From Bradymonadia bacterium (GTDB taxonomy: Bacteria; Myxococcota_A; Bradymonadia; UBA7976; UBA1532), in the NCBI GenBank assembly GCA_046290225.1, contig JBKAGE010000034.1, forward strand, positions 343,598 to 407,597: a DNA stretch of 64,000 nucleotides. The letters run 5' to 3'. The notes beneath the pieces are model-generated. The model had not been told where the DNA came from and made no database searches. It worked only from the letters and a program-made list of their open reading frames with translations. The translations under genes were made by a program, and so were the position numbers. Numbering within the stretch: the stretch's first letter is position 1; the number at the start of each line of letters is the position of its first letter. This document shows positions 2,554 through 34,169 of the stretch, piece after piece.

Positions 2554-4103
2554 AGAAGAAGACGCTCACGGGACGCATCAGCGGCTTCTTCCGCCGCGCA
2601 CCACAAGGTGAGGAGGAGCCGCCCTCCGAGCCCGCACCGAACGATGAGCCTCTGCCTCCGGCCACGGAGGGCGTCAACCTGCTCCTCATCAGTGATCTGC
2701 ACCTCGGGGAGGCGTGCAAGGATCACAGCCGAATCGAATATCTGAAGCGCAGCGCCACCCTCGACGAGGACCTCTGTCGGTTCCTCGAGCACCACACCCA
2801 CAATCGTCTCGACGGGCGGCCGTGGCGTCTGGTCCTCGCAGGTGATCTGCTCGACTTCCTGCAGGTGACCATCGTGCCCACCGGCGCCTCTGATGAGGCC
2901 AGACGATTTGGTCTGGGCACGACGGAGGAAGAGTCCGCCTGGAAGCTCTCCAGGCTGATGGAGCGTCACCGCCGTGCCTTTGTCTATCTCGCTGGCTTCG
3001 TCGGCGCCGGGCACCAGCTCGACATCATCCAGGGCAACCATGACGAAGAGCTGTTCTGGCCCAAAGTGCAGGAGACCCTCGTGGCGGGGCTCAAGCAGAT
3101 CTACTTCGGCGGCGAGGACACCGCGGAGGTCACCCCCGAGGATTTCGAATCTCGAGTGCGGTTTCATCCGTGGTGCTTGCACATTCCCGGCGTGCTCTAT
3201 GTCGAGCATGGCCATCGATATGATCCGTACTGCGCCACGCCCCCACAGCTCTGCCCCTTGCGTCCCGGTGACGAGCGCGAGCTGACCCAACCGCTCAGCG
3301 GACTGGCCATTCGTTACTTCGCCAACCTGGAGCGGGGGTTCCAGACCCACGACAAGGAGCACTGGGGCCTGAGAGAGTACAGCGCCTACTATCGCTCTCG
3401 GGGCTGGGGCCACCTGATCGACGTATGGCATCGCTATGTGCACTTCCTGAAGCAGGCCCATCAGTACTATCGGGATCATGGCAGCCTCAGCAGCGAAGCG
3501 GCACACGCGCAACATCAGGCCGCCCTCGTAGAGGTGGCCGAGGCAGAGCAGATCACCCTCGCTGATCTTCAGGCCCTCGACACCCTCGGCGCCCCCTCGG
3601 TGACCAGTGACGCCTTCGGGTTGTACGCCGGGGTGGGCATGGCCGAGTGGACCGCCATCTCCGGCGCGCTGTTCGTGGCTCTGCTGATGTTGCTGACCCC
3701 CTGGTCCTGGTGGGTCGAGTTGGGCCTCATCGGCGCAGGCATCTTTGCTGGGGTGCGCTGGGTCCGATACGCACGAGGGCGGTTCCCCCTCGCTGCCCCC
3801 ATCTACCTCAGCGATGCAGCGGAGCAGATCGGCGCCCGGTTGAAAGTCCCGGTCGTAGCCATGGGCCACACCCACAAACCCCTGCGACGACGCCAGGCCT
3901 TCGATCACCGGGCCTTCTACGTGAACACGGGCTCGTTCCTGGCGCCTCATGGACCGCACCACGGCCCCACTGAGCCCTGCACTTGTAGAACCACCTTCGT
4001 GGTGATCCCTCATGCGGGGGCGCATGACCGGCCCTCACCCAAACTGTATCGCTGGTGTGTGGTGAATCAGAAGCCTGCGCCCTTCAAGGTCAAGCGCGGC
4101 TGA
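2550..4103 (+). CDS. calcineurin-like metallophosphoesterase with C-terminal transmembrane segments
   Basis: phosphoesterase motifs LLISDLHLGE, LAGDLLDF, IQGNHDEE, GHTHKP; two hydrophobic helices near aa 390-430; GTG start overlapping the upstream stop. Confidence 0.65.
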   Translation: MKKKTLTGRISGFFRRAPQGEEEPPSEPAPNDEPLPPATEGVNLLLISDLHLGEACKDHSRIEYLKRSATLDEDLCRFLEHHTHNRLDGRPWRLVLAGDLLDFLQVTIVPTGASDEARRFGLGTTEEESAWKLSRLMERHRRAFVYLAGFVGAGHQLDIIQGNHDEELFWPKVQETLVAGLKQIYFGGEDTAEVTPEDFESRVRFHPWCLHIPGVLYVEHGHRYDPYCATPPQLCPLRPGDERELTQPLSGLAIRYFANLERGFQTHDKEHWGLREYSAYYRSRGWGHLIDVWHRYVHFLKQAHQYYRDHGSLSSEAAHAQHQAALVEVAEAEQITLADLQALDTLGAPSVTSDAFGLYAGVGMAEWTAISGALFVALLMLLTPWSWWVELGLIGAGIFAGVRWVRYARGRFPLAAPIYLSDAAEQIGARLKVPVVAMGHTHKPLRRRQAFDHRAFYVNTGSFLAPHGPHHGPTEPCTCRTTFVVIPHAGAHDRPSPKLYRWCVVNQKPAPFKVKRG

Positions 4104-4118
4104 GACTGGCCTGAGCGG

Positions 4119-4697
4119 TCACGCCTCGAAGGCCGCCCTGAGCACCCCGTCGAGTCGGCTCACGGCCTCTCTCGCCGTCTCCTTGCGCCCCATGGTCATG
4201 GGGATGCCGGCCCCAACTCGATGGGTGACGCCGGTGACCAGCGGGCCAGGACCACGACGCAGGCTGCGCCTCACGGGTACGATGGGCACATCGCACTTGA
4301 ACGCCACCTGCACCAGCCCCTCGCCCTCACCGAGTTGAGCCAGCACAGCGTGCCCGGCCATCAGCCGACGACGGATCACATAGTGGGAAGCAGGCAGCAC
4401 CCCGAGGGCGCCGAGGTGCGGGTTGAGCGCCGGCCATCGCAGCCAGCGCTCGTCGAGCACGAGGCGTGGCCAGGGTCGGCCCGCCCGGCGCAGGGCCGAG
4501 GCCATCGCCAGGGCATCGAGGGGGCTCGTCCCTGCAGGCAGGACCCAGAGGGCCCCCGCTGAGGGCCAGCGCTCAGGCCACTCCACACGATGGCGGCTCG
4601 CTCGGAGGGCGCCGGAGAGCAAGGGGCTCAGGCGATCGAGGGCGCTGGGGTCAAAAGCGTCAGGGGCGTCTGGGGGAAACAGTTCGGCAGTCTTCAT
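4119..4697 (-). CDS. hypothetical protein
   Basis: ORF starting at internal Met (MKTAELF...) 20 nt downstream of the kinase gene stop; no motif recognised. Confidence 0.4.
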   Translation of the reverse strand: MKTAELFPPDAPDAFDPSALDRLSPLLSGALRASRHRVEWPERWPSAGALWVLPAGTSPLDALAMASALRRAGRPWPRLVLDERWLRWPALNPHLGALGVLPASHYVIRRRLMAGHAVLAQLGEGEGLVQVAFKCDVPIVPVRRSLRRGPGPLVTGVTHRVGAGIPMTMGRKETAREAVSRLDGVLRAAFEA

Positions 4698-4716
4698 GGC
4701 CCGGGTGGGATGCAGT

Positions 4717-5898
4717 TCAGTTGTGTCCGGTCGCAGCGTCGGGATCGAGAAAACGACCCGTGGCCTCATTGGACTCGTGCACGCCGGTGTCTTCATCGTG
4801 CACGTGGGTCTCGTTCGTGTGGGCTGCTCTTTCGAGCGACGCGAGCGTCTCGAGACCTGGCAGAGGGCCGGTCATGTCCACGAGGCGGGTGTAATTCACC
4901 CTCAGGCCTGTGGGCGTGTCGTCATCTGAGGGGCCCACGAGATCGAACTCTTGATAGCGCTCGTCGTGCTCCATGCGCTCACGGGCGAAAATACGGCTGA
5001 GCGTACGCCCCAGGTCGAGGGGCTTGAAGCGCGGGAACCGATCCCGCCGGTAGACCTCGAGCTCGTCTGCGAAAGCCTCGGCAGTGGCGTATCGTGCCTC
5101 TGCATCCTTCGCCAGAGCCCTGGCGAGGATGCGCTCGAGGGTGGCATCGAGGCCAGGGAGATCGGCGACGCCGGGGTGAGGCTGATGGCGAATCGCCTCC
5201 ATGACCTCGACGTCTTCAGATCCCTTGAAGGGGGTCTCGCCCGTGAGGGTTTCGAAGAGCACGGCCCCTGCTGCGAAGACATCGGAGCGCCGGTCGAGCC
5301 GTCGCCCCATGGTCTGCTCCGGGCTCATGTAGCGCACCTTGCCCTTGATGACCCCCACCCGGGTCTTCACCCGGTTGAGGCGCCCCTTGGCGATGCCGAA
5401 GTCGATGAGCTTCACCTCGCCGCGGTAGCTGACCATGATGTTCGACGGGCTGAAGTCGCGGTGCACGATGTCGAGGGGCTCACCGGTGAGGTCGACCTGC
5501 TCGTGGGCACAATGCAAGCCCCTCAGCGCCTGTTCCACCGCCCACAAGCCGTACTCCACGGGCCAGGGCATCTCCCGAGCCCGGCAGCGACGCAGCGCAG
5601 ATCGTAGATCTACCCCTTCGACGTACTCCATCACCAGGAAGTACTCGTCTTCGAGGTGGCTGAACTCGTACGTGCGGGTGATGTTGGGGTGATCGAAGAG
5701 GCACGTGATCTTGGCCTCGTCAATGAGCATGTCGATGAACTCTTGATCGGCGGTGTAGAACGACAGCAACCGCTTGATGGCCACAGCCTCGAGCTCACCG
5801 TCGGCGTCGCGCCGGGCGGCACGATAGATCTCCGCCATTCCCCCAGAGGAGATCCGGTAGAGCAAACGATAGGGTCCAAGTGATCGAGCGCGGCGCAC
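4717..5898 (-). CDS. serine/threonine protein kinase
   Basis: Hanks kinase motifs: GxGxxAxIY glycine loop (SSGGMAEIYRA), AIKRL, HRDFSPSNIMV, DFGIAKG, SPE. Confidence 0.85.
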   Translation of the reverse strand: MRRARSLGPYRLLYRISSGGMAEIYRAARRDADGELEAVAIKRLLSFYTADQEFIDMLIDEAKITCLFDHPNITRTYEFSHLEDEYFLVMEYVEGVDLRSALRRCRAREMPWPVEYGLWAVEQALRGLHCAHEQVDLTGEPLDIVHRDFSPSNIMVSYRGEVKLIDFGIAKGRLNRVKTRVGVIKGKVRYMSPEQTMGRRLDRRSDVFAAGAVLFETLTGETPFKGSEDVEVMEAIRHQPHPGVADLPGLDATLERILARALAKDAEARYATAEAFADELEVYRRDRFPRFKPLDLGRTLSRIFARERMEHDERYQEFDLVGPSDDDTPTGLRVNYTRLVDMTGPLPGLETLASLERAAHTNETHVHDEDTGVHESNEATGRFLDPDAATGHN

Positions 5899-6065
5899 GA
5901 GGGAAGGCTAGCTTGCCCGGCCCGCAGTTGCAATCCACCATACCCGGTGATAAGAGCTGCTCAGGGCAGCGCCTGGGCTGATGGTGCCGCGCATAAAGCC
6001 GCTCTCAGGGGTGTTTGACGAGATCGAGCCCCCACCATCACCGCGCTGACGAAGAGGAGATCACC

Positions 6066-6629
6066 ATGACTCGCCCCCTGCTTTTCCGCACCTCGACCCT
6101 CACAGGTGCCCTCACCCAGGCCGCTCTCCTGGGGACGCTCACCCTCACCGCCTTCGGGTGCCAGGAGTCCGCCAAGGCCAAAGGTCCGGACCAGACGCCG
6201 CCCAAGGCGGCAGATGCTCCGGCGTCCCCTGATGCGGTGAAGGCTGAAGCGAAGCCCGCTGAGGCACCTGCAGCCGAGCAGGCTGAGGCCCCCATCTACG
6301 CGGTGAAGATCCGTCCTGGCGACGCCAAGGCCGGTCAGGCAGGGACTTCGGTCATCGAGGTGACCCCGGCGAAGGGCTACAAGGTCAACCTCGAGTTCCC
6401 CAGCCGTCTGAAGCTCTCGCCCGTGCAGGGTATCGCCCACACCAAGGCCGAGCTGGGCAAGGACGACGCCGAGGTCACCGAGAAGGTGTTGCGGTTCAAC
6501 GTCGGCTTCACCCCCTCTGCTGCAGGGAAGTACGCCCTTGAAGGTGTGGCCGACTTCAGCGTCTGCAATGATCGCACGTGCCGCCTGATCCGCGGCGAAA
6601 AGCTCACCTGGGAGGTGGCGGTACAGTAA
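6066..6629 (+). CDS. lipoprotein, function unknown
   Basis: GAGGAG RBS 8-13 nt upstream of the ATG; signal peptide with lipobox (LTLTAFGC); Ala/Pro/Glu-rich linker; precedes prkA on the same strand. Confidence 0.6.
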   Translation: MTRPLLFRTSTLTGALTQAALLGTLTLTAFGCQESAKAKGPDQTPPKAADAPASPDAVKAEAKPAEAPAAEQAEAPIYAVKIRPGDAKAGQAGTSVIEVTPAKGYKVNLEFPSRLKLSPVQGIAHTKAELGKDDAEVTEKVLRFNVGFTPSAAGKYALEGVADFSVCNDRTCRLIRGEKLTWEVAVQ

Positions 6630-6665
6630 GCTGCCGTCACACAGCACAACCCTCGAGGACCATCG

Positions 6666-8948
6666 GTGACCAAGACACACGACGACGCACCCGATCAGGG
6701 TGGCGCCTCCACAGGCGCCCTCGACAGCACCAGCTTGCTCGCCCAGGCGGTGGAGCACACTCGGGCGCGGTTCGAGCAGGAGAAGTCCCTGCTCAGCTTC
6801 GATGACTACCTCGCCATGGTGGCCCGCGATCCCGTGCCCCAGACCCGGGACACGGCCCGGTACATCCGGGACTGCTTCCTCTTCTACGGCACTGACGAGA
6901 TCTCGAGGCCGTACGGGCAATTCACGCGTTATCGTCTGTTCGACTGCCCCTTCGACAACGGCCGCGATCCGCTCATCGGCCAGGAAGGCGTGCAGCAGCA
7001 GGTCTTCGGCCTGCTGAGCGACTTCGTCAACGATGGCCGCGCCCAGAAGCTCATCCTGCTCCACGGCCCCAACGGCAGCGCCAAGAGCAGCTTCGTGCGG
7101 TGCCTCATGCGGGCCCTCGAGCACTACAGTCAGCAGCCCGAGGGCGCCCTCTACACCTTCAACTGGGTCTTCCCTACCAACAAGGTGTCCAAGGGTGGCA
7201 TCGGCTTCTCCGGCGGCAGCGCAGGCCCCGATCTGGCCACCTACGCCAACCTCGGCGAGTTGGAGATCGACGCCCGGCTCACCAACGAGCTGCGAGATCA
7301 CCCGCTGCTGCTGCTGCCCAAGGCAGAGCGTCGCGTGCTGCTCGACGCCCTCTACGCCAACACCGGCGCTCGCCCACCGCTCAGCCTTTACGATGGTGAG
7401 CTCAGCCCCAAGGCCCGGACCATCTTCCAGGCCCTGCTCAAGGCCTACCACGGCGACCTCTCCGAGGTCCTCAAGCACGTTCAGGTGGAGCGTTTCTACG
7501 TCTCCCGGCGCTACCGCACCGGCGCGGTGACCGTGAATCCCCAGCTCCGCGTCGACGCCTCCATGCGTCAGCTCACGGCGGATCGCAACCTCGCCTCGTT
7601 GCCCCCGAGCCTGCAGAACCTCAGCCTGTTCGAGGCCATGGGCGACCTGGTGGACGCCAACCGCGGCATGATCGAGTTCAATGATCTGCTCAAGCGGTCT
7701 CCAGAGGCCTTCAAGTACCTGTTGTCCACCTGTGAAGACGGCCGGGTCAGCCTCGACCTGATGACCTTCCAGATGGACGCGGTCTTCATCGGCAGCACCA
7801 ACGAGAAGTACCTCAACGCCTTCAAGGAGACGCCGGACTTCTCGAGCTTCAAGGCCCGCATCGAGCTGATCCAGGTGCCCTACCTTCGAGACTACACGCT
7901 CGAGGCCCGCATCTACGCCGATCAGGTGGACCCGGAGCGCATTGATCGGCCGGTGGCACCCCACACAGATCAGGTCATGGCCTTGTGGGCGGTGCTCACG
8001 CGGTTGCAGCCCCCTGCAGGGGTCGATCTGCCCAAGAACGTTCAAGACGTGGTGCAGAAGCTCACGCCGCTCCAGAAGGCCCGCCTGTACGCCTCGGGCT
8101 TCATGCCCAGCGGCCTGCCCCGCGACGTGTCCAACGCTCTGCGGAGCGGCACCCCGAGCCTGTACCGGGAGACCCTGAACCACCCCTTCTACGAAGGCCG
8201 GTTCGGCGCCAGCCCCCGGGAGCTGCGTGCGGCCCTGCTCAGCGCCAGCAGGCGCTCGGGCTATCGCTCGCTCACCCCCATGGCGGTCTTCGAAGAGCTC
8301 GAGGCGCTGTGCACCCAGACCTCGGTGTACGAGTTCCTGCGGCTCGAGTCGGAGCGCGAATACCGCGCCCCTAAGGAGGCCATCGCCACCGTGCGTCAGT
8401 GGTACCTGAGTACCGTGGAAGACGAGCTGCACGGGGCCATGGGCCTCGTGGACTCGGTGCGCACCCTGGAGCTGTTTGCCCAGTACATCGATCACGTGAC
8501 CCACTACCTGCGCAAAGAGAAGCGCCTCGATCCCGTCACTGGCAACTACCAGGATCCGGACGAGAAGCTGATGTCGGACGTAGAGAGTCGGATCGGAGTG
8601 AAAGGCAACGCCGACGATGCCCGTGCCGGGGTACTCCACCGCATCGCTGCGTGGCGGATGGACAACCCCGACGCCCCCCTCGACTACCAGATCATCTTCA
8701 GCAACGAGATCGGCAAGATCACCGACGCCTTCTACGCCGAGAAGCGCGAGGTGGCCGATCGCATCAAACGCAACCTGCTGAAGTATCTCGTGGAAGAGAG
8801 CCATGGGCTCAACGCAGACGAGGTGGCTCAGGTCGAGCACACCTTGAAGTCTCTGGAAGAAGATTACGGATACGCCCGCCCGTGCGCCATCGACGTGGTG
8901 GGTTTTGTGCTCAAGCACGGCCTCGTGAACCAGACGCGGGATCAGTGA
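6666..8948 (+). CDS. prkA: PrkA family serine protein kinase (AAA-type P-loop N-domain)
   Basis: Walker A LILLHGPNGSAKSS; overall length and architecture of PrkA/YeaG; GTG start. Confidence 0.8.
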   Translation: MTKTHDDAPDQGGASTGALDSTSLLAQAVEHTRARFEQEKSLLSFDDYLAMVARDPVPQTRDTARYIRDCFLFYGTDEISRPYGQFTRYRLFDCPFDNGRDPLIGQEGVQQQVFGLLSDFVNDGRAQKLILLHGPNGSAKSSFVRCLMRALEHYSQQPEGALYTFNWVFPTNKVSKGGIGFSGGSAGPDLATYANLGELEIDARLTNELRDHPLLLLPKAERRVLLDALYANTGARPPLSLYDGELSPKARTIFQALLKAYHGDLSEVLKHVQVERFYVSRRYRTGAVTVNPQLRVDASMRQLTADRNLASLPPSLQNLSLFEAMGDLVDANRGMIEFNDLLKRSPEAFKYLLSTCEDGRVSLDLMTFQMDAVFIGSTNEKYLNAFKETPDFSSFKARIELIQVPYLRDYTLEARIYADQVDPERIDRPVAPHTDQVMALWAVLTRLQPPAGVDLPKNVQDVVQKLTPLQKARLYASGFMPSGLPRDVSNALRSGTPSLYRETLNHPFYEGRFGASPRELRAALLSASRRSGYRSLTPMAVFEELEALCTQTSVYEFLRLESEREYRAPKEAIATVRQWYLSTVEDELHGAMGLVDSVRTLELFAQYIDHVTHYLRKEKRLDPVTGNYQDPDEKLMSDVESRIGVKGNADDARAGVLHRIAAWRMDNPDAPLDYQIIFSNEIGKITDAFYAEKREVADRIKRNLLKYLVEESHGLNADEVAQVEHTLKSLEEDYGYARPCAIDVVGFVLKHGLVNQTRDQ

Positions 8949-27643: not shown

Positions 27644-27789
27644 ACCTCGACACAGTCGATGCTGTGAACCGCCGTTGACGCCCCGTCGAATCCCGCCTGA
27701 AAACTGGCCTTTTCAGATCTGGCACGGCCCCTGCTTTATCCCCTGGCGTCCGCAATCGAGACCCACACTGAGACGGGAGAGCACCTCAC

Positions 27790-29373
27790 ATGGCCCACGC
27801 GACACTCAAAGCCCTCATGCCTCTGGCCCTCGCCACCCTCACTGCCTGTGGCGCAATGGATGATGATGCCTACGACAGCGGGGATCAGGGCGGGGCCTAC
27901 TATCCCCCGGCACCGAACAACGGCTATGTCCCGCCGCAAGAGACCCCGCCCAGCGGGGATCCTCAGTCCGGGGAGCAATATGAGCACTACGGCCACAACC
28001 CCTTCGTGGACGCTGAAGAGGACAACCTCGCCACCTTCGCCATCGACGTGGACACTGCGAGCTACACGCTCACCCGCAGGAACATCAACAATGGCTGGCT
28101 GCCGGATCCTGCTTCGATCCGTGTGGAAGAGTTCATCAACTACTTCAAGTACGCCGACGAGGGCCCTGCCCCCTCCGACGCTCGCCCCTTCGCCATTCAC
28201 ATGGAGGTGGCGCCCTCGTTGTTCGGTGACAGCGCTGGCGGCCAGGCCGCGGACGATGTGGAGCGCTCGCTGATGCGGGTGAACATTCGCGGCATCGATC
28301 TCGAAAACGAAGAGCGCAAGTCCGCGAACCTCGTGTTCCTGCTCGACGTCTCCGGCTCCATGTCCAGCCCCGACAAGCTGGGTCTCGTGCAGTACAGTAT
28401 GCGACGTCTCACGGAGACATTGCGCCCCGACGACACCATCAGCATCGTGGTCTATGCGGGCGCCGACGGCGTGGTGCTCCCCCCCACCCCGGTCTCCAAC
28501 GCTGGCCGCATCATCGATGCTGTCGAGAGCCTGCGACCTGGTGGCGGGACCAACGGCGAGGCGGGCATTCGCACGGCCTACCGCCTCGCTCAGGAAGCCT
28601 ACAAGAACGACGGCATCAACCGGGTGATCCTGTGTACCGACGGCGACTTCAACGTGGGCCTCACCGGCGACGCCCTGGTGGGGCTCATCGAGGAGAAGCG
28701 CGACGAGGGTGTCACCCTCACGGTCCTCGGCTTCGGCAGCGGGAACTACAACGATCGCACGATGGAGCAGCTGGCCAACAAGGGGAACGGCAACTACGCG
28801 TACATCGACCAGATCGCCGAAGCGGAGCGGGTGCTCGTCGAAGGCATCACCGGCACACTGCAGGTCATCGCCAAGGACGTGAAGATCCAGGTGGAGCTGA
28901 ACAGCGACGCTGTGGCCCGATACCGGCTCATCGGGTACGAAAACCGCGACATCGCCGACGACCAGTTCCGCGACGACGCGGTGGACGCTGGGGAGATCGG
29001 CGCCGGCCACCAGGTGACGGCCTACCTCGAGCTGGAGCTACAGCCCAATGTGCGGGCCGACGCCACCCTCGACCTGGCCACGGTCCGGGTGCGCTACAAG
29101 GCCCCTGATGCCACGGCGGACGACGCCGCCCTCGAGGAGGTGGCCCGTACGCTGGAGATGGGGGCCCATCGACGGGACTTCGAGGACGCCAGCGACGACT
29201 TCCAGTTCGGCGCAGCCGTAGTGGAGTTCGCCGAGGTCCTCCGGGAGAGCCCGCACAGCGTCGGTCGCCGCCTCGGTGAGCTTCAGAGCGTAGCCCGCCG
29301 CGCTGCCGGCGACGACGCACGACGCGCCGAGTTCATCGAGCTCGTAGAGCGTGCCGCCACCCTCACCCGCTGA
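27790..29373 (+). CDS. von Willebrand factor A domain lipoprotein (YfbK-like, vWA plus DUF3520-type C-terminus)
   Basis: lipobox LALATLTACG; MIDAS motif LLDVSGSMS; conserved N-terminal FAIDVDTASYT and C-terminal VRVRYKAP.. regions. Confidence 0.8.
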   Translation: MAHATLKALMPLALATLTACGAMDDDAYDSGDQGGAYYPPAPNNGYVPPQETPPSGDPQSGEQYEHYGHNPFVDAEEDNLATFAIDVDTASYTLTRRNINNGWLPDPASIRVEEFINYFKYADEGPAPSDARPFAIHMEVAPSLFGDSAGGQAADDVERSLMRVNIRGIDLENEERKSANLVFLLDVSGSMSSPDKLGLVQYSMRRLTETLRPDDTISIVVYAGADGVVLPPTPVSNAGRIIDAVESLRPGGGTNGEAGIRTAYRLAQEAYKNDGINRVILCTDGDFNVGLTGDALVGLIEEKRDEGVTLTVLGFGSGNYNDRTMEQLANKGNGNYAYIDQIAEAERVLVEGITGTLQVIAKDVKIQVELNSDAVARYRLIGYENRDIADDQFRDDAVDAGEIGAGHQVTAYLELELQPNVRADATLDLATVRVRYKAPDATADDAALEEVARTLEMGAHRRDFEDASDDFQFGAAVVEFAEVLRESPHSVGRRLGELQSVARRAAGDDARRAEFIELVERAATLTR

Positions 29374-30796
29374 GTGCATACACCTCGCCCCTCACCCTCC
29401 CTACGCCACCTTCTGATTGCACAGTCAAGGTGTCGAAGGGGGCTGAGGGCATCACAAGCGCGCTCAACCCTCGCCGCCCACACAGCGAGAACACCTCGAC
29501 CGAGCCGTGATCGATGATGAGCCTGATGCCATGGCTCGCCTGCCCCGGCGCTTCGCAGAGTGTCGGGCCCTCCCGCTGAGCGAACACCGTGGAGCGGTCG
29601 AGAGACATCCCCTCAAATCCCACACGGATCACCACCCGCTCCCCCGCAACACCAGAGAGTGTCACCACCACAGTGAGATCGTCTCGCTCCGGCAGCCAAT
29701 CCACGCTCACATCAGCCACTTCGGGCAGACTCATCTTCAATGTGCTCTCGTTCAGAGGCTTCCAGGGCAGTTCCTGATGCGCACCTCGAAACGCCTCGAG
29801 CTGCTCTGCGGGCAAAGCAGACAGCCGCAAACCCTCAGGTGTCTCTTTCAGTGACAGAGTGCGCGGCGTCGCCATGGCGCCTCGCCATGTCGTGGCCGGT
29901 ACCGTCCGGGCGTACTTCCAGTTGTTCATCCAGCCCAGCATCAACACCGACGTCGATGGTGTCGGAGCCCCAGACCACGTGACGGCTGCATAGTGGTCCG
30001 GTCCGTAGTCCAACCAGAGTGGTTGCTCGATCGGCTCCGCCACGAACCGCTCACCATCAAAGTCACCTACGAAATATTGCGTGCCTGAGCCTGAGTTGGG
30101 GCCACCATCGTCCAGGCTGACCAGCATGATCCAGCGGGTGCGGCCCTCGTATTCGAGGGGGAACACATCAGGGCACTCCCACACGCCTCCATGGGCGCCG
30201 AGGCCTTCACCGAAGTCCGAGCTGTGGTGCCAGCGCCGCAGATCCCGCGAGACCCAAATCTGTACCCGATCCCCAGCGGCGAGCACCATCACCCATCGAC
30301 CCGTGGGCCGGTGCCAGCGCACCTTCGGATCTCTGAAGTCCTTCAGGCCTGGGTTGGGGATGATGGGATTGTCGGGCCATTCACACCAGGTCTGCCCCTT
30401 GTCGGTGCTGTACGCCAGGCTCTGGACCTGATGCCCCTCGGCGGTGGAGTGCGTAAACAACGCAACGATCGAAGGTGCGCCGACCCCAAGTGTGTCGTGG
30501 GCATCAAAGACAGCACACCCGGAGAAAACCATGCCCAGTTCTGGGTGAGGCTTCAGCGCCGGCGGGTGGTATTGCCACCTGACAAGATCGGTCGAAGTGG
30601 CGTGGCCCCAATGAATGTCCCCCCACGAGAGGCCGTTCGGGTTGGCTTGGTAGAAGAGGTGATACACCCCATCGACGTACACCATGCCATTGGGATCGTT
30701 CATCCACCCCACCTCAGGGGTGAAATGGATGATGGGGCGGAGGGGGATGTAGGGCATGTGCTCGCTCTGCGTGGTGAGAGACATCGGGTCTACCAC
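29363..30796 (-). CDS. glycoside hydrolase family 32 (beta-fructofuranosidase/levanase-like)
   Basis: GH32 signature HFTPEVGWMNDPNGMVY...YHLFYQ; RDPKV and EC motifs further in. Confidence 0.8.
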   Translation of the reverse strand: MVDPMSLTTQSEHMPYIPLRPIIHFTPEVGWMNDPNGMVYVDGVYHLFYQANPNGLSWGDIHWGHATSTDLVRWQYHPPALKPHPELGMVFSGCAVFDAHDTLGVGAPSIVALFTHSTAEGHQVQSLAYSTDKGQTWCEWPDNPIIPNPGLKDFRDPKVRWHRPTGRWVMVLAAGDRVQIWVSRDLRRWHHSSDFGEGLGAHGGVWECPDVFPLEYEGRTRWIMLVSLDDGGPNSGSGTQYFVGDFDGERFVAEPIEQPLWLDYGPDHYAAVTWSGAPTPSTSVLMLGWMNNWKYARTVPATTWRGAMATPRTLSLKETPEGLRLSALPAEQLEAFRGAHQELPWKPLNESTLKMSLPEVADVSVDWLPERDDLTVVVTLSGVAGERVVIRVGFEGMSLDRSTVFAQREGPTLCEAPGQASHGIRLIIDHGSVEVFSLCGRRGLSALVMPSAPFDTLTVQSEGGVGRVRGEVYALSG

Positions 30797-30971
30797 GTCC
30801 GGCTCTGCAGGCGGAGCGCCCCAGCATATCCATTCAGATAAACCAACGCGCTAAACCAATCACACCAACATAACCAACTTGAATACGCTTCTCATCCCCA
30901 GCCATCAAACACGCAACAAAGCAATTACATAACAAGCACTTGCACTAAAACAACCTCATCCCCCGGAAAAA

Positions 30972-30988
30972 CTGGCACGCCCCCTGCT
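30972..30988 (+). promoter_or_regulatory. putative sigma54 (-24/-12) promoter: CTGGCACGccccCTGCT
   Basis: matches YTGGCACG-N4-TTGCW with correct spacing and one mismatch (CTGC for TTGC); located about 45 nt upstream of the first tRNA-like gene. Confidence 0.45.
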
Positions 30989-31034
30989 CTAGCCTCAGAG
31001 CGCCGACAGAGAGGCACCTGCTCAGCGCAGACAA

Positions 31035-31151
31035 CGAGGCGTAGCTCAGCCAGGGAGAGCGCCCGCTGTTGAAAAATGGTGTCCGACTGTCTCGACGTCT
31101 TACTTCGCTTTGGGGGCGGGAGGTCGCAGGTTCGAATCCTGCCGTCTCGCA
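31035..31151 (+). ncRNA. tRNA-like RNA (tRNA-Pro-derived) with a ~43-nt insertion at the 5' side of the anticodon loop; candidate Y-RNA-like tRNA mimic
   Basis: 7-bp acceptor CGAGGCG/CGTCTCG, D arm GCTCAGCCAGGGAGAGC, T arm GCAGGTTCGAATCCTGC, anticodon stem CCCGC/GCGGG flanking the insert, then a TTTGGGG loop identical to the tRNA-Pro(UGG) loop. Confidence 0.6.
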
Positions 31152-31223
31152 GTGTGCGCTGAGCAGGTGTCTCTCTGTTGGCCATTGGAGAAACCGGAAG
31201 AAGTTGCTGTTCGGCCCATGCAT

Positions 31224-31332
31224 CGAGGTGTAGCTCAGTCTGGTAGAGCGCTTGATGATGATGTCCGACTGCCTTGATGTCTTACTTCGCTTTGGGTGCG
31301 AGAGGTCGCAGGTTCGAATCCTGCCACCTCGA
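31224..31332 (+). ncRNA. tRNA-like RNA with a ~38-nt insertion in the anticodon arm (same conserved motif); candidate Y-RNA-like tRNA mimic
   Basis: acceptor CGAGGTG/CACCTCG (perfect), D arm GCTCAGTCTGGTAGAGC, T arm GCAGGTTCGAATCCTGC; insert contains GTCCGACTG...TGTCTTACTTCGC followed by TTTGGGT. Confidence 0.6.
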
Positions 31333-31382
31333 TGGATGCGCCGAGCAGGATCTTCCTTCGGGTCGTGGGGCTGCGCCTCTTC

Positions 31383-31489
31383 GGGGGTGTAGCTCAGTGG
31401 TGAGAGCGCTATTACAGATTTCCGACTGTCTGGATGTCTTACTTCGACTGTCAATCGAGAGGTCGTGGGTTCGAATCCCACCGCCCCCG
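31383..31489 (+). ncRNA. tRNA-like RNA with a ~40-nt insertion in the anticodon arm (same conserved motif); candidate Y-RNA-like tRNA mimic
   Basis: acceptor GGGGGTG/CGCCCCC (one GU pair), D arm GCTCAGTGGTGAGAGC, T arm GTGGGTTCGAATCCCAC; insert TTCCGACTGTCTGGATGTCTTACTTCGACTG. Confidence 0.55.
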
Positions 31490-31553
31490 CTCAGCGCAGC
31501 CCCACGACATTTTCGTACGACGCAGTGACTCGAGATCGATGCGCCGTGCTCAT

Positions 31554-31627
31554 CGGAGTGTAGCTCAGCCTGGGAGAGCCGACGGTTTGGGGCCGTAAGG
31601 TCGCAGGTTCAAATCCTGCCACTCCGA
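31554..31627 (+). tRNA. tRNA-Pro (anticodon UGG)
   Basis: 74-nt cloverleaf: acceptor CGGAGTG/CACTCCG, D arm GCTCAGCCTGGGAGAGC, anticodon loop TTTGGGG, T arm GCAGGTTCAAATCCTGC; no encoded CCA. Confidence 0.8.
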
Positions 31628-31733
31628 CAGTGTTTTTCAGATCCTGCCCTTCGGGCGCCCCTCCGCTCCTACGGCTTCGCCTCCGTCGGCTGCGGGGCGT
31701 CCGGCCGCAGGCCGGACAGGATCGCGAGTGTTT
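31628..31733 (+). repeat. structured ~100-bp repeat unit A (multi-hairpin, UUCG tetraloop, GUCCGGCC-GCAG-GCCGGAC hairpin)
   Basis: three near-identical copies in the window (also 31726-31830 and 32061-32165); outer stem GATCCTG/CAGGATC. Confidence 0.75.
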
Positions 31734-31830
31734 TTAGGATCTTGCCCTTCGGGCGCCCCTCCGCTCATACGGCTTCGCCTCCGTCGGTTACGGGGCGTCC
31801 GGGCACAGGCCGGACAAGATCGCGAGCTCA
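31726..31830 (+). repeat. structured ~100-bp repeat unit B (tandem to unit A)
   Basis: about 90% identical to unit A; same hairpin layout. Confidence 0.75.
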
Positions 31831-31860
31831 CGCTCGCTGGTTCAGCCAAGGCGTTTTGAC

Positions 31861-31975
31861 TGCGCCGTGATGGTTCGGGTGAGCTCATCCACTCAGGCTT
31901 CCGACTGACTGGGTGTCTTACTTCGACTGAAACTCCAAGAATGTGGGTGGGCTCTCTCGAGCCATCACGGCGCTG
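31861..31975 (+). ncRNA. stand-alone copy of the conserved CCGACTG-N6-TGTCTTACTTCGACTG motif enclosed by a perfect 12-bp terminal stem (GCGCCGTGATGG/CCATCACGGCGC); candidate small structured RNA
   Basis: direct sequence observation; same motif as in the three tRNA-like insertions. Confidence 0.45.
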
Positions 31976-31986
31976 TCAATACTCAT

Positions 31987-32060
31987 CGGGGTGTAGCTCA
32001 GCCTGGAAGAGCGCACGGTTCGGGTCCGTGAGGCCGCAGGTTCAAATCCTGCCACCCCGA
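31987..32060 (+). tRNA. tRNA-Pro (anticodon CGG)
   Basis: 74-nt cloverleaf: acceptor CGGGGTG/CACCCCG, anticodon stem CACGG/CCGTG, loop TTCGGGT, T arm GCAGGTTCAAATCCTGC. Confidence 0.85.
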
Positions 32061-32165
32061 CAGTGTTTTTCAGATCCTGCCCTTCGGGCGCCCCTCCGCT
32101 CCTGCGGCTTTGCCTCCGTCGGCTACGGGGCGTCCGGCCACAGGCCGGACAGGATCGCAGGCTTC
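32061..32165 (+). repeat. structured ~100-bp repeat unit C (third copy, again directly 3' of a tRNA-Pro)
   Basis: about 92% identical to unit A. Confidence 0.75.
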
Positions 32166-32217
32166 GCCTGCTGCCCATTTCCGCGTGCTGTGGTGACAAC
32201 GGCACTCCACCTGACCA

Positions 32218-32340
32218 CAGATGACTGTTGGTTTGGGTGCATCAACCCGACCAGGAGTCGGCACTTTGTGTGTCAACTCTTAGATGTCCAACTGACCGGG
32301 TGTCTTACTTCGACTGATGCATTCAAACGAGCAGTCATCT
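32218..32340 (+). ncRNA. second stand-alone copy of the conserved motif (GTCCAACTGACCGGGTGTCTTACTTCGACTG) enclosed by a 9-bp terminal stem (AGATGACTG/CAGTCATCT); candidate small structured RNA immediately upstream of rsr
   Basis: direct sequence observation; internal hairpin TTGGGTGCATCAACCCGA. Confidence 0.45.
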
Positions 32341-32360
32341 GTATCGGGTGCATTTGACTC

Positions 32361-34169
32361 GTGACTGAGCGGAATACACCCGCTCGACTGGAGGATGACA
32401 TGACTCGCGTGTTGAAGACTCAGAACATGAAGCAGTGGCTGACCCAGGGCTGGATCAGCACCTACGAGGGCGCGCCTGCCTACGACTACAGCGACACGCA
32501 CCCGCTCATCCACTTGGTGTTCACCATGGGCTCGGCCCTGTTCACCGACGGCTTCTATGAGACTGAGCAGGCCCAGGTCCGCACCTTCGCACAGTCCCTG
32601 CTCCGGGCGGCCCAGGTCGACCCCAAGTTTCCCTGGCAGTACGCCGCGTGGATGCGTGACCCCAAGCGCGGCAAGGGCAACCGGATCCAGGGCTCCCTGG
32701 CGCCGGCGCTGCTCGACGCCCTGTTGCCCAAGGATCTGCGAGACGAGGCAATCGTCGCCCAGTACACCGCCCTGGCTCTGAGCCATCGGCCCGATGACGT
32801 CACCGCATGCCTGACGCACTACGAGCGGCTTGGCCTCGGCCGCCCCTCAAAGGCGGTGCGGCAGGGCATGGCGCTGGCTCTGACGAAGTTCGACGAGTAC
32901 CAGCTGCTCAAGTACACCGGCAGCCGCCAGAAGGTACGCCTGTGCGATGTGATCTTGATGGTGCGCGAAGAGCTCGAGGCCCTCAGTGATGGTGGCGCTC
33001 TGGCGCTGGCTGTCGGTCGGTACCTGCACGCCCCCACACGATCACGGAAGGATCACCCCTCCCTCGATCGCATGCACCTGACCCGAGCGCGCCGCGCGCT
33101 CTGGGCGATGCCGCCCTCTGGGGCGCTGTCGCCGGAGCTTCCGCTGCAGCTCGAGGCCTCACGGGTGACCTGGGAGCAGGTGCTCAGCCACTTCGGTGCG
33201 GGCAATGATCCGAGCGTGAAGCGCCGCCGTAAGGCAGTGTGGTCGGCGCTGCTCTCCGTGCGCGGGCTGGTACCCGACACTGCTTTGCTGCGCAACGTGC
33301 GCAACATGGTGGAGGCGGGTGTCTCTGCGGATCAACTCACCGAGGTGGTCTCTCAGCGCCGGTTCGACAAGGTCTGGCCGCACCAGGTCTACGCGGGCTA
33401 CAAGGCCGCGCCTCAGCTCGGCGCCCACTTCGAGGCGATCTTCAGCCGCACCCTCGATCGGCTCCCCCTCGGGCGCCATCTGGGCATCGCTGACGCCTCG
33501 GGCTCGATGATGGTGAAGGTGGGTGGCTCGAAGGGCTCGCTCAACGCCATGGATGTGGCGCTGTGCTTCACTGCCATCATGAGCGAGAGCTCCGGCCTCG
33601 GCGCCTCGTTCTCTGATGGCCAGTTCGCGCAGTGGTCTGGCGGCAAGTGCCTCTCGATCGCTGCCCGTGGGCAGCACGAGGGCGCCCTGAAGTTCGCTCA
33701 GAACCCGGCCCTGCGCCGAGGTATGGGCGGCACTCAGGTCTTCGGTGCCGTGATGGAGCTGATCAAGTGGCTGGTGGACCACCCAGAGGTGACCCCGCCG
33801 GACTGCTTGTGGTTCTTCTCTGATATGCAGTTCCACCCGGCGGCGGGCGCGCTCAAGAGCCAGCCCAACGTCATCACGGAGCTGTCGAAGATCCACGGCG
33901 TGTCACTGCAAGGCCCGCCCCTCGAGGCGGCCCTGAAGCTCTACCGGAAGGCCATCGGTCCGGTGGACGTGGTGCTCTGGAATCTGGCTGCCTATGCGCC
34001 TGTGCCGGTGCCCGCGGACATGGAAGGTGTGCTCTTGGTGAGCGGCTTCGACACCAACACTTTCGACACCGTCAGCCGCTGGCGACAAGGGCTGCCGATG
34101 TCCGGTGAGGGTGCGCCGTCGGTGGAGGAGAGCCAGGAGATCGTTCTGGATAAGATCCGCGCGTTCTGA
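32361..34169 (+). CDS. rsr: Ro60-like ribonucleoprotein (TROVE domain plus C-terminal vWA domain with MIDAS), Rsr homologue
   Basis: TROVE-like N-terminal block LIHLVFTMGSALFTDGFYETEQ (compare Ro60 LCFGSEGGTYYIKEQ); C-terminal vWA with MIDAS LGIADASGSM; size and architecture fit Ro60/Rsr. Confidence 0.7.
   Translation: MTERNTPARLEDDMTRVLKTQNMKQWLTQGWISTYEGAPAYDYSDTHPLIHLVFTMGSALFTDGFYETEQAQVRTFAQSLLRAAQVDPKFPWQYAAWMRDPKRGKGNRIQGSLAPALLDALLPKDLRDEAIVAQYTALALSHRPDDVTACLTHYERLGLGRPSKAVRQGMALALTKFDEYQLLKYTGSRQKVRLCDVILMVREELEALSDGGALALAVGRYLHAPTRSRKDHPSLDRMHLTRARRALWAMPPSGALSPELPLQLEASRVTWEQVLSHFGAGNDPSVKRRRKAVWSALLSVRGLVPDTALLRNVRNMVEAGVSADQLTEVVSQRRFDKVWPHQVYAGYKAAPQLGAHFEAIFSRTLDRLPLGRHLGIADASGSMMVKVGGSKGSLNAMDVALCFTAIMSESSGLGASFSDGQFAQWSGGKCLSIAARGQHEGALKFAQNPALRRGMGGTQVFGAVMELIKWLVDHPEVTPPDCLWFFSDMQFHPAAGALKSQPNVITELSKIHGVSLQGPPLEAALKLYRKAIGPVDVVLWNLAAYAPVPVPADMEGVLLVSGFDTNTFDTVSRWRQGLPMSGEGAPSVEESQEIVLDKIRAF

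Follow-up and report, generated by a model that had tools for sequence, protein, structure and literature searches.

Structured repeats behind tRNA-Pro genes in a small-RNA array upstream of a predicted Ro60 gene: candidate co-transcribed trailers

In this study, we identified three direct repeats of about 98 nucleotides (nt), units A, B, and C, associated with the two proline transfer RNA (tRNA-Pro) genes in a 64-kb stretch of DNA from a Bradymonadia bacterium (GenBank assembly GCA_046290225.1, contig JBKAGE010000034.1, positions 343,598 to 407,597). This whole stretch is hereafter called the window, and its own numbering is used throughout. The units lie within an array of approximately 1.4 kb of non-coding RNA genes, all on the forward (+) strand, which runs from a sigma-54-type promoter through to the gene of a predicted divergent Ro60 protein. 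We tentatively favor the view that the units are transcribed together with the tRNA-Pro genes, as their structured 3′ trailers or spacers, in a polycistronic precursor of the Y-RNA type, by analogy with known Ro60 loci. The decisive context is the Ro60-like gene together with five Y-like RNAs around the repeats, which were absent from an initial annotation of this DNA. The tRNA genes, the units, and the features that touch them are as follows.

31554-31628, + strand: tRNA-Pro(UGG), called by ARAGORN; Rfam 55.7 bits; canonical, CCA not encoded
31629-31726, + strand: unit A; linker AGUGUUUUUCA at 31629-31639, four-way junction at 31640-31723
31727-31824, + strand: unit B, which repeats A in tandem and differs most from the other copies; junction at 31738-31821
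31822-31837, + strand: small GC hairpin GCGAGC-UCAC-GCUCGC, which closes the A-B block; read from the sequence
31987-32061, + strand: tRNA-Pro(CGG), called by ARAGORN; Rfam 65 bits; canonical, CCA not encoded
32062-32159, + strand: unit C, 95% identical to unit A; junction at 32073-32156
32157-32171, + strand: small GC hairpin GCAGGC-UUC-GCCUGC after unit C; read from the sequence
31637..31888 and 31918..32205, minus (−) strand: open reading frames (ORFs); no Pfam match

The initial annotation had described three structured repeats of about 100 bp, and these are real: both a profile and a covariance model recover them. Their mean column identity is 93%, with pairwise values between 90 and 95% (A/C 93/98, A/B 89/98, and B/C 88/98), and their GC content is 70-76%. 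Each unit opens with the 9-mer AGTGTTTTT, which occurs three times in the 64 kb against 0.01 expected and has no other site there. A U-rich linker, AGUGUUUUUNN, which contains the stretch AGUGUUUUU, is followed by an 84-nt GC-rich four-way junction. All of the helices described earlier are present and are joined in this junction, which has zero unpaired junction bases. They comprise an outer stem GAUCCU/AGGAUC, a hairpin GCCC-UUC-GGGC, a stem GCCCC/GGGGC that encloses a pyrimidine-rich interior with a small ACGG/CCGU hairpin, and an 8-bp hairpin GUCCGGCC/GGCCGGAC. The units fold with minimum free energies between −42 and −49 kcal/mol (z-scores from −2.0 to −3.4), a stability that 0-6 of 200 shuffled sequences also reach.

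Four of the five helix substitutions among the three units keep the pairing. The outer stem of unit B carries one compensatory C-G to U-A pair, two further helix changes lead to G-U, and one loop-proximal pair is broken; the remaining differences lie in loops or in the linker. Each of the two single-sided stem changes produces G-U if the + strand is the RNA and an A-C mismatch if the − strand is, which points to the + strand. The pattern is compatible with a constrained RNA fold, though it is not significant with three sequences. Thus, the few pairing-preserving stem substitutions noticed initially do exist, but they do not amount to significant covariation (171 of 500 shuffles reach it, in a test that is powerless at n = 3). 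No Rfam family matched the units on either strand, in a scan of the window at gathering thresholds or in a scan of 30800-32450 at E ≤ 5. A coding reading was rejected; no start codon occurs on the + strand across the units, and the − strand ORFs overlap a tRNA gene. Because these ORFs match no Pfam family and cover a tRNA gene in antisense, the earlier view that they are artefacts is borne out, with their coordinates corrected to those listed above.

ARAGORN predicted exactly two tRNA genes in the window, both tRNA-Pro. Each has a cloverleaf and a 7-nt anticodon loop, and C1-G72, A73, G35, G36, and G37 can be read from its sequence; these are the tRNA-Pro identity elements known from recognition by E. 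coli prolyl-tRNA synthetase. Units A and C begin one base after the tRNA discriminator, and unit B adjoins A; the statement that each unit lies immediately 3′ of a tRNA-Pro gene holds for A and C, whereas B follows A. The repeated block consists of tRNA plus unit (31549-31725 versus 31982-32158, 93% identity; repeat family D1). Its boundaries are sharp, as the 40-nt flanks upstream of the tRNAs and downstream of B and C are about 25% identical, a random level. From these alignments, the tRNA-Pro and unit block appears to have been duplicated once, giving the UGG/A and CGG/C pairs, and the unit alone duplicated again in tandem to give B, with unequal crossing-over of the 98-nt unit as the probable source of the A-B junction.

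The tRNA-Pro bodies are identical at 66 of 75 positions (88%), with compensatory acceptor-stem differences. The A/C unit identity of 95% is higher than this, which argues for constraint or gene conversion and not for free drift. This comparison bears on a neutral alternative, which we consider unlikely: that the units are a young, lineage-specific GC-rich stretch hitch-hiking with tRNA-Pro through local duplication, whose structure is inherited and has no function of its own. A sequence of 70-76% GC folds well by default, and shuffled controls reach −35 to −40 kcal/mol. There are only three copies at 90-95% identity without significant covariation, and the unit occurs in no related Ro60-like locus and in none of the public collections scanned. 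Such an origin fits poorly with a tidy four-helix junction without unpaired junction bases, with pairing kept in four of five helix substitutions, and with units A and C being better conserved than the functional tRNAs before them. The 6-bp hairpins after B and C also hold the same position and differ by two compensatory pairs, in our own reading by eye.

The remaining features of the array are listed below.

30973-30987, + strand: predicted sigma-54-type promoter, TGGCACGCCCCCTGC, with −24 GG and −12 GC elements
31002-31182, + strand: Y-like RNA 1; tRNA-like part 31035-31150, Rfam tRNA 47.3 bits, 48-nt insert
31194-31361, + strand: Y-like RNA 2; tRNA-like part 31224-31332, Rfam tRNA 51.6 bits; inverted repeat I3
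31362-31508, + strand: Y-like RNA 3; tRNA-like part 31383-31489, Rfam tRNA 52.5 bits; fold z = −5.6
31846-31989, + strand: Y-like RNA 4, a long hairpin without tRNA-like domain, with the module at its tip (31894-31929); inverted repeat I1, fold z = −7.9
32217-32342, + strand: Y-like RNA 5, a long hairpin or three-way junction with the module at 32281-32316; inverted repeat I4, fold z = −8.3
32400-34169, + strand: gene of a predicted divergent Ro60 ortholog with TROVE ring and vWA domain, 240 nt downstream of unit C

The predicted transcription start at approximately 31000 coincides with the first base of the long stem of the first RNA. The promoter is one of only two exact matches to the sigma-54-type pattern TGGCAC-N6-TGC in the window. 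The other, at 27720-27734, lies just 5′ of a vWA/YfbK-like gene (27790-29373). An ORF on the + strand at approximately 14744, 16 kb upstream of the array, encodes the GAFTGA signature (...RGAFTGAVEDKKG...) of sigma-54 enhancer-binding proteins. No sigma-70-like promoter was found across 30700-32500, and a consensus scan of the same region for canonical terminators yielded only 32247-32261, inside Y-like RNA 5, and none at the units.

Y-like RNAs 1-3 contain tRNA-like elements of 107-116 nt that score 47-52 bits and in which a 44-48-nt insert replaces the anticodon loop; in all three, long inverted repeats on either side lengthen the acceptor stem. The acceptor stem of Y-like RNA 1 is extended by a 40-nt flanking inverted repeat (I2), with the module in place of the anticodon loop, and Y-like RNA 3 is enclosed by a perfect 15-bp flanking stem (inverted repeat I5). 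Outside its insert, Y-like RNA 2 is about 88% identical to tRNA-Pro(CGG) by our own count, which matches the similarity between the two genuine tRNA-Pro genes. The module is a 36-nt sequence that occurs five times (motif family D2), in the three tRNA-like inserts and at the tips of the two long hairpins, and consists of a helix with the loop GACUGnCU followed by UCUUACUUCG. We first considered GUCCGA in the module as the metazoan Ro-binding motif GGUCCGA; this equation was dropped because the comparison across loci places UCC in a covarying helix. Rfam YrlA matched the region only at 31198-31257 and scored 16.8 bits there, the cutoff being 69. Neither rtcB nor rtcA was seen among the ORFs translated around the locus (27-38 kb).

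Arrays of this kind have precedents. In D. radiodurans, Yrn2, a real tRNA-Asp, and Yrn1 form one precursor, and the rsr locus encodes further small RNAs that are less Y-like (PMC4201824). M. smegmatis YrlA and YrlB likewise derive from a single precursor (PMC4201824), and the Salmonella rsr operon is described as sigma-54-dependent (PMC9879122). The window resembles the rsr loci of D. radiodurans, S. Typhimurium (rsr-yrlBA-rtcBA), and M. smegmatis (yrlA-yrlB-rsr) in having structured RNAs within about 1.5 kb of a Ro60-type gene on the same strand, an embedded genuine tRNA gene, and at least one RNA with a tRNA-like domain, and it resembles the Salmonella operon in the sigma-54-type promoter before the array. 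It differs from the rsr loci in that its protein is only 15-17% identical to Ro60 structures and its RNAs fall below the Rfam cutoff for YrlA; moreover, no trailer with a four-way junction like that of the units is described there.

On this basis, we propose that the whole array would be transcribed from the sigma-54-type promoter as one precursor. The U-rich, single-stranded 11-nt linker may let an endonuclease of the RNase E or RNase Z type free the 3′ end of the CCA-less tRNA. The self-folding junction could prevent wrong pairing between the tRNA and the long stems of neighboring Y-like RNAs and resist 3′-to-5′ exonucleases, and a discrete RNA of about 85-100 nt would be released. The units, tRNAs, Y-like RNAs, and gene all lie on one strand, and from this shared strand, the single upstream promoter, and the absence of a terminator we infer co-transcription; processing at the linker and any role of the released RNA are likewise proposals. 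Among the options raised in the initial annotation, the best fit is a small RNA that is transcribed with the tRNAs and then processed; it is partly supported by the common strand, the single promoter, and the Yrn2-tRNA-Asp-Yrn1 precedent.

Several points weigh against such a trailer. The fold z-scores of the units are modest, their covariation is not significant, and recent duplication or gene conversion could alone explain the high A/C identity. No unit homolog exists in any collection searched, and independent covariation is therefore lacking. Neither a true tRNA nor a unit was found in any of ten other Ro60-like loci (seven close and three distant, described below), which implies that the Ro60/Y-like system works without the unit. 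Should the units be processed and stable, they would show clearly how a modular trailer can insulate a tRNA inside a densely structured polycistronic RNA. Taken alone, they are a modest curiosity, a lineage-specific structured trailer, and the surrounding cluster is of more interest.

A structured segment directly 3′ of a tRNA that can be released by cleavage in an A/U-rich linker is also known from E. coli, where 3′ETS-leuZ, an external transcribed spacer (ETS), acts as a small-RNA sponge by base-pairing and has no four-way junction. Unlike 3′ETS-leuZ, no target complementarity has been identified for the units.

The initial annotation also offered a terminator cassette. In that case the units would act as terminators or attenuators after each tRNA-Pro and set the ratio of short RNA to Ro60 mRNA, which we judge improbable. 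The 8-bp GC hairpin is very stable, GUGUUUUU lies 6 nt past unit A, the tandem A and B recall double terminators, and in one homologous locus (L076) a seven-U run stands directly 3′ of the tRNA-like RNA, just before the gene. Rho-independent terminators likewise combine a stable GC hairpin with a nearby U run. In such terminators, however, the U tract follows the hairpin within 0-2 nt, whereas the U run of unit A is displaced by 6 nt, no U tract follows B or C, and the U5 of the linker precedes each junction instead of following it. At none of the units did the consensus scan detect a site, so that this option finds no support. In addition, three terminators would sever the Ro60-like gene and Y-like RNAs 4 and 5 from their only recognizable promoter.

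The product of the gene at 32400-34169 is, according to its structure model, a divergent Ro60. Its Pfam matches are TROVE at 28.5 bits, which is weak and barely at threshold, and DUF7788, and a sequence search against PDB chains gave no match; the fold search revealed Ro60. Along its whole length, the AlphaFold2 model (pLDDT 87.7, pTM 0.87) can be superposed on the Ro60 structures of Xenopus and human, the top Foldseek matches (TM 0.64-0.74, E ~1e-12), and it also matches D. radiodurans Rsr (E 5e-9). All aligned homologs retain the metal-ion-dependent adhesion site (MIDAS) motif DxSxS (D365/S367/S369) without change. There are about 75 relatives of this protein, ten of which are represented here by retrieved loci (L numbers designate retrieved loci and contigs). 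This divergent Ro60 family is nearly invisible to Pfam, yet has its own conserved RNAs. The locus thereby extends knowledge of bacterial Ro60 ribonucleoproteins (RNPs) and represents a novel form of the Ro60/Y RNA system.

Proteins with 53-68% identity to the window protein are encoded at seven distinct loci (L001/L002, L003/L004, L006/L007, L073, L074, L075, and L076). All seven have one to three long tRNA-like RNAs directly upstream of the gene on the same strand. A TGGCAC-N5-TGC element stands 28-91 nt before the first RNA in six of the homologous loci, and the variant in L006 ends in TAGCA.

Long tRNA-like RNAs: L001 5589-5839, L003 5490-5949, L006 5682-5890, L073 3731-3944, L074 3620-3958, L075 3237-3341, L076 2766-2868; in the window, 31002-31508
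TGGCAC-N5-TGC sites: L001 5498, L003 5428, L073 3697, L074 3579, L075 3203, L076 2738

In an alignment of 14 tRNA-like RNAs, 93% of the cells are paired, both sides change in 19 of 27 pairs, and the module helix covaries at six of seven pairs; none of 500 shuffles reaches the observed covariation. C1-G72 is present in half of the RNAs and A73 in most, by our own reading of the alignment; these are acceptor-end marks of bacterial tRNA-Pro. The long tRNA-like RNAs are thus a covarying family of tRNA-Pro-like cloverleaves in normal order whose anticodon loop has become an extended arm with the covarying module hairpin at its end, and the family is absent from Rfam 15. Judged from the loci compared, the tRNA-like RNAs, the promoter, and the protein appear to be conserved, and the cassette of tRNA-Pro and unit unique to this genome. 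At the position of tRNA-Pro(CGG), the syntenic locus L001 has a tRNA-Pro-derived element (5870-5978), which is followed directly by the gene. This element retains the CTCAT leader and the first ~12 nt as well as the T arm and the 3′ strand of the acceptor; its D and anticodon region is unrelated, and neither ARAGORN nor Rfam calls it a tRNA.

More distant relatives in Myxococcus and Obscuribacterales, with proteins 36-39% identical, have a short upstream RNA (L077 3918-3985, L078 3914-3984, and L081 2913-2985). It has the form 5′-GGCRCCCC-UACUUCG-[hairpin]-GGGGYGCC-GACUU-3′ with open termini and a compensatory R/Y change. This RNA appears to be a circular permutation of the hairpin version of the module. 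A permuted RNA with the same helix and flanking motifs supports the assignment of the helix and its two 3′ flanking motifs as the protein-binding module.

The tRNA-like RNAs of the window share a D arm, a T arm, and an acceptor stem with YrlA (RF02553), and in both the position of the anticodon stem joins the presumed protein-binding helix. YrlA, however, is circularly permuted: its Ro site lies at the termini, its T arm precedes its D arm, and its acceptor is closed by a loop. The tRNA-like RNAs of the window, in contrast, keep the normal tRNA order, with termini at the acceptor stem and a closed helix at the tip of the anticodon arm. Such unpermuted tRNA-Pro-shaped RNAs with a grafted helix are a plausible intermediate between tRNA genes and permuted YrlA mimics.

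The units themselves contain neither D-loop nor T-loop sequence and gave no Rfam YrlA match at E ≤ 5. That the unit RNAs form a further class of Ro60 partners, as substrate or decoy for the RNP, is distinctly improbable. They lie 240-770 nt upstream of the Ro60-like gene on the same strand, and same-strand proximity to a Ro60 gene is the criterion that has been used for finding bacterial Y RNAs (PMC4201824). Ro60 loci typically encode several small RNAs, some unlike canonical Y RNAs, and the unit has a pyrimidine-rich interior that bears a loose resemblance to the loops of Y RNAs. The units nevertheless lack the module (helix, GACUG, and UUACUUCG) common to all other RNAs of this protein family. 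GGUCCGA and GNCGAAN0-1G are absent from their + strand, with GGCGAAG on the − strand only; Rfam gives no match, and the units are missing from all other loci of the family. A weak likeness to the Myxococcus upstream RNA (L077), the best of nine unit comparisons (p ~0.03 uncorrected), is not significant after correction for the nine tests. Homology of the units to the third element of L001, to Y-like RNAs 1, 4, and 5, and to the Myxococcus and Obscuribacterales RNAs was rejected.

Copies of the unit were searched for in the window with a profile and a covariance model, and in public collections with sequence patterns. Filter-free nhmmer found no copy in the 64 kb beyond the three known ones (E 1e-29 to 3e-30). 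The filter-free covariance model likewise found none; the known units score 110-115 bits, followed at 24 bits by their own antisense strand and then by noise of up to 20 bits. On the nine homologous loci, the covariance model gave only noise in coding regions. The Genome Taxonomy Database (GTDB) was scanned with exact-anchor patterns over the representative genomes of 185,579 species, among which the source metagenome-assembled genome (MAG) is not included. An exact 20-mer common to all units has 20 loci there, where the matches end at 20-23 nt and are coincidences in coding sequences or belong to an unrelated small repeat. With a two-anchor pattern, JGI metagenomes yielded 45 loci that all proved not to be the unit, and IMG/VR yielded none. 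The unit was not found in phages, and plasmids gave only two weak partial matches within Streptomyces coding sequences. The units are therefore locus-specific within the searchable sequence, an orphan element.

These counts bear on the REP-like option of the initial annotation, namely that the units are a dispersed repeat of the repetitive extragenic palindromic (REP) or miniature inverted-repeat transposable element (MITE) type, or another mobile repeat, that landed beside tRNA-Pro. We regard this as highly improbable. The units have 7-nt terminal inverted repeats (GATCCTG/CAGGATC) and strong palindromic content, and share with REP elements and bacterial interspersed mosaic elements (BIMEs) a GC-rich, palindromic, intergenic, and tandem character. 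REP and BIME elements, however, are single hairpins of 20-40 nt, dispersed in tens to hundreds of copies and often in inverted pairs, whereas the units are 98 nt long with four helices and exist as three copies in direct orientation at one locus. A density of one copy per ~17 kb would lead one to expect about four in the window, and no other is present on either strand; with the negative results from GTDB representatives, JGI metagenomes, and IMG/VR, the REP-like option is not supported. All copies are direct, and the repeated block includes the tRNA. The mobile-element reading was rejected because a target-site duplication is absent and unequal crossing-over accounts for the tandem junction.

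The sole other assembly of the organism breaks only a few bases from where unit C begins, as assemblies do at repeats; the three local copies account for this break. The contig in question, Logan SRR22269038_526 (L080) from an independent short-read assembly, has its position 1 at window position ~32074.

Unrelated small repeats in other genomes often contain hairpins of the GCCCTTCGGGC type, another point in favor of a mobile repeat. One such repeat, ...CCACCCC-GCCCTTCGGGC-GCCCCTCCG-GAGG-AGGGG..., contains the 20-mer of the units and is otherwise unrelated. It occurs on five contigs of the MAG CALGMT01 (L008, L013, L014, L019, and L022), in L027 (Prevotellaceae), where it contrasts with AT-rich flanks, and in L011 (Bacillota). 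In the JGI contigs, GCCCTTCGGGCGCCCC stands in two recurrent GC-rich contexts (L028, L029, L041, L050, and L062; and L036, L037, L038, L049, and L056). The first reads ...GCCCACCCCCTAC-GCCCTTCGGGCGCCCC...CCCCTCAAGGGGCG and the second ...ATTCCGGG(T/C)TC-GCCCTTCGGGCGCCCCGGAATGA..., and both resemble REP-type elements of other organisms.

The module of the Y-like RNAs was also observed within a ribosomal RNA (rRNA). In L005 (GCA_002720785.1), a 23S rRNA gene (2741-5935) with its own processing stem ends 66 nt before a Ro60-like gene (6001-7749), and no 16S gene lies within 2.7 kb upstream of it. At 4907-4950, this 23S gene contains an insertion of 41 nt whose place, E. coli position ~1907, is the 5′ base of helix 69; the inserted sequence is the same module, GGUCC-GACUGUCU-GGAC-GUCUUCCUUCG.

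A broader proposal would join this observation to the array: instead of passive spacers, the units would form a third class of RNA that serves the divergent Ro60 as partner or decoy, beside the tRNA-Pro-shaped and the hairpin Y-like RNAs, and the sigma-54 array with its two tRNA-Pro genes a stress-induced surveillance module for tRNA-Pro and the ribosome. Its link to the ribosome comes from the module at the helix 69 base of a 23S gene upstream of a homologous Ro60-like gene, and we rate the proposal as improbable. The real tRNA-Pro genes in the array and the module in helix 69 of a relative are testable leads on the targets of bacterial Ro60-type RNPs. The 23S rRNA of L005 is 67% identical to that of E. 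coli over the aligned positions and carries several other insertions.

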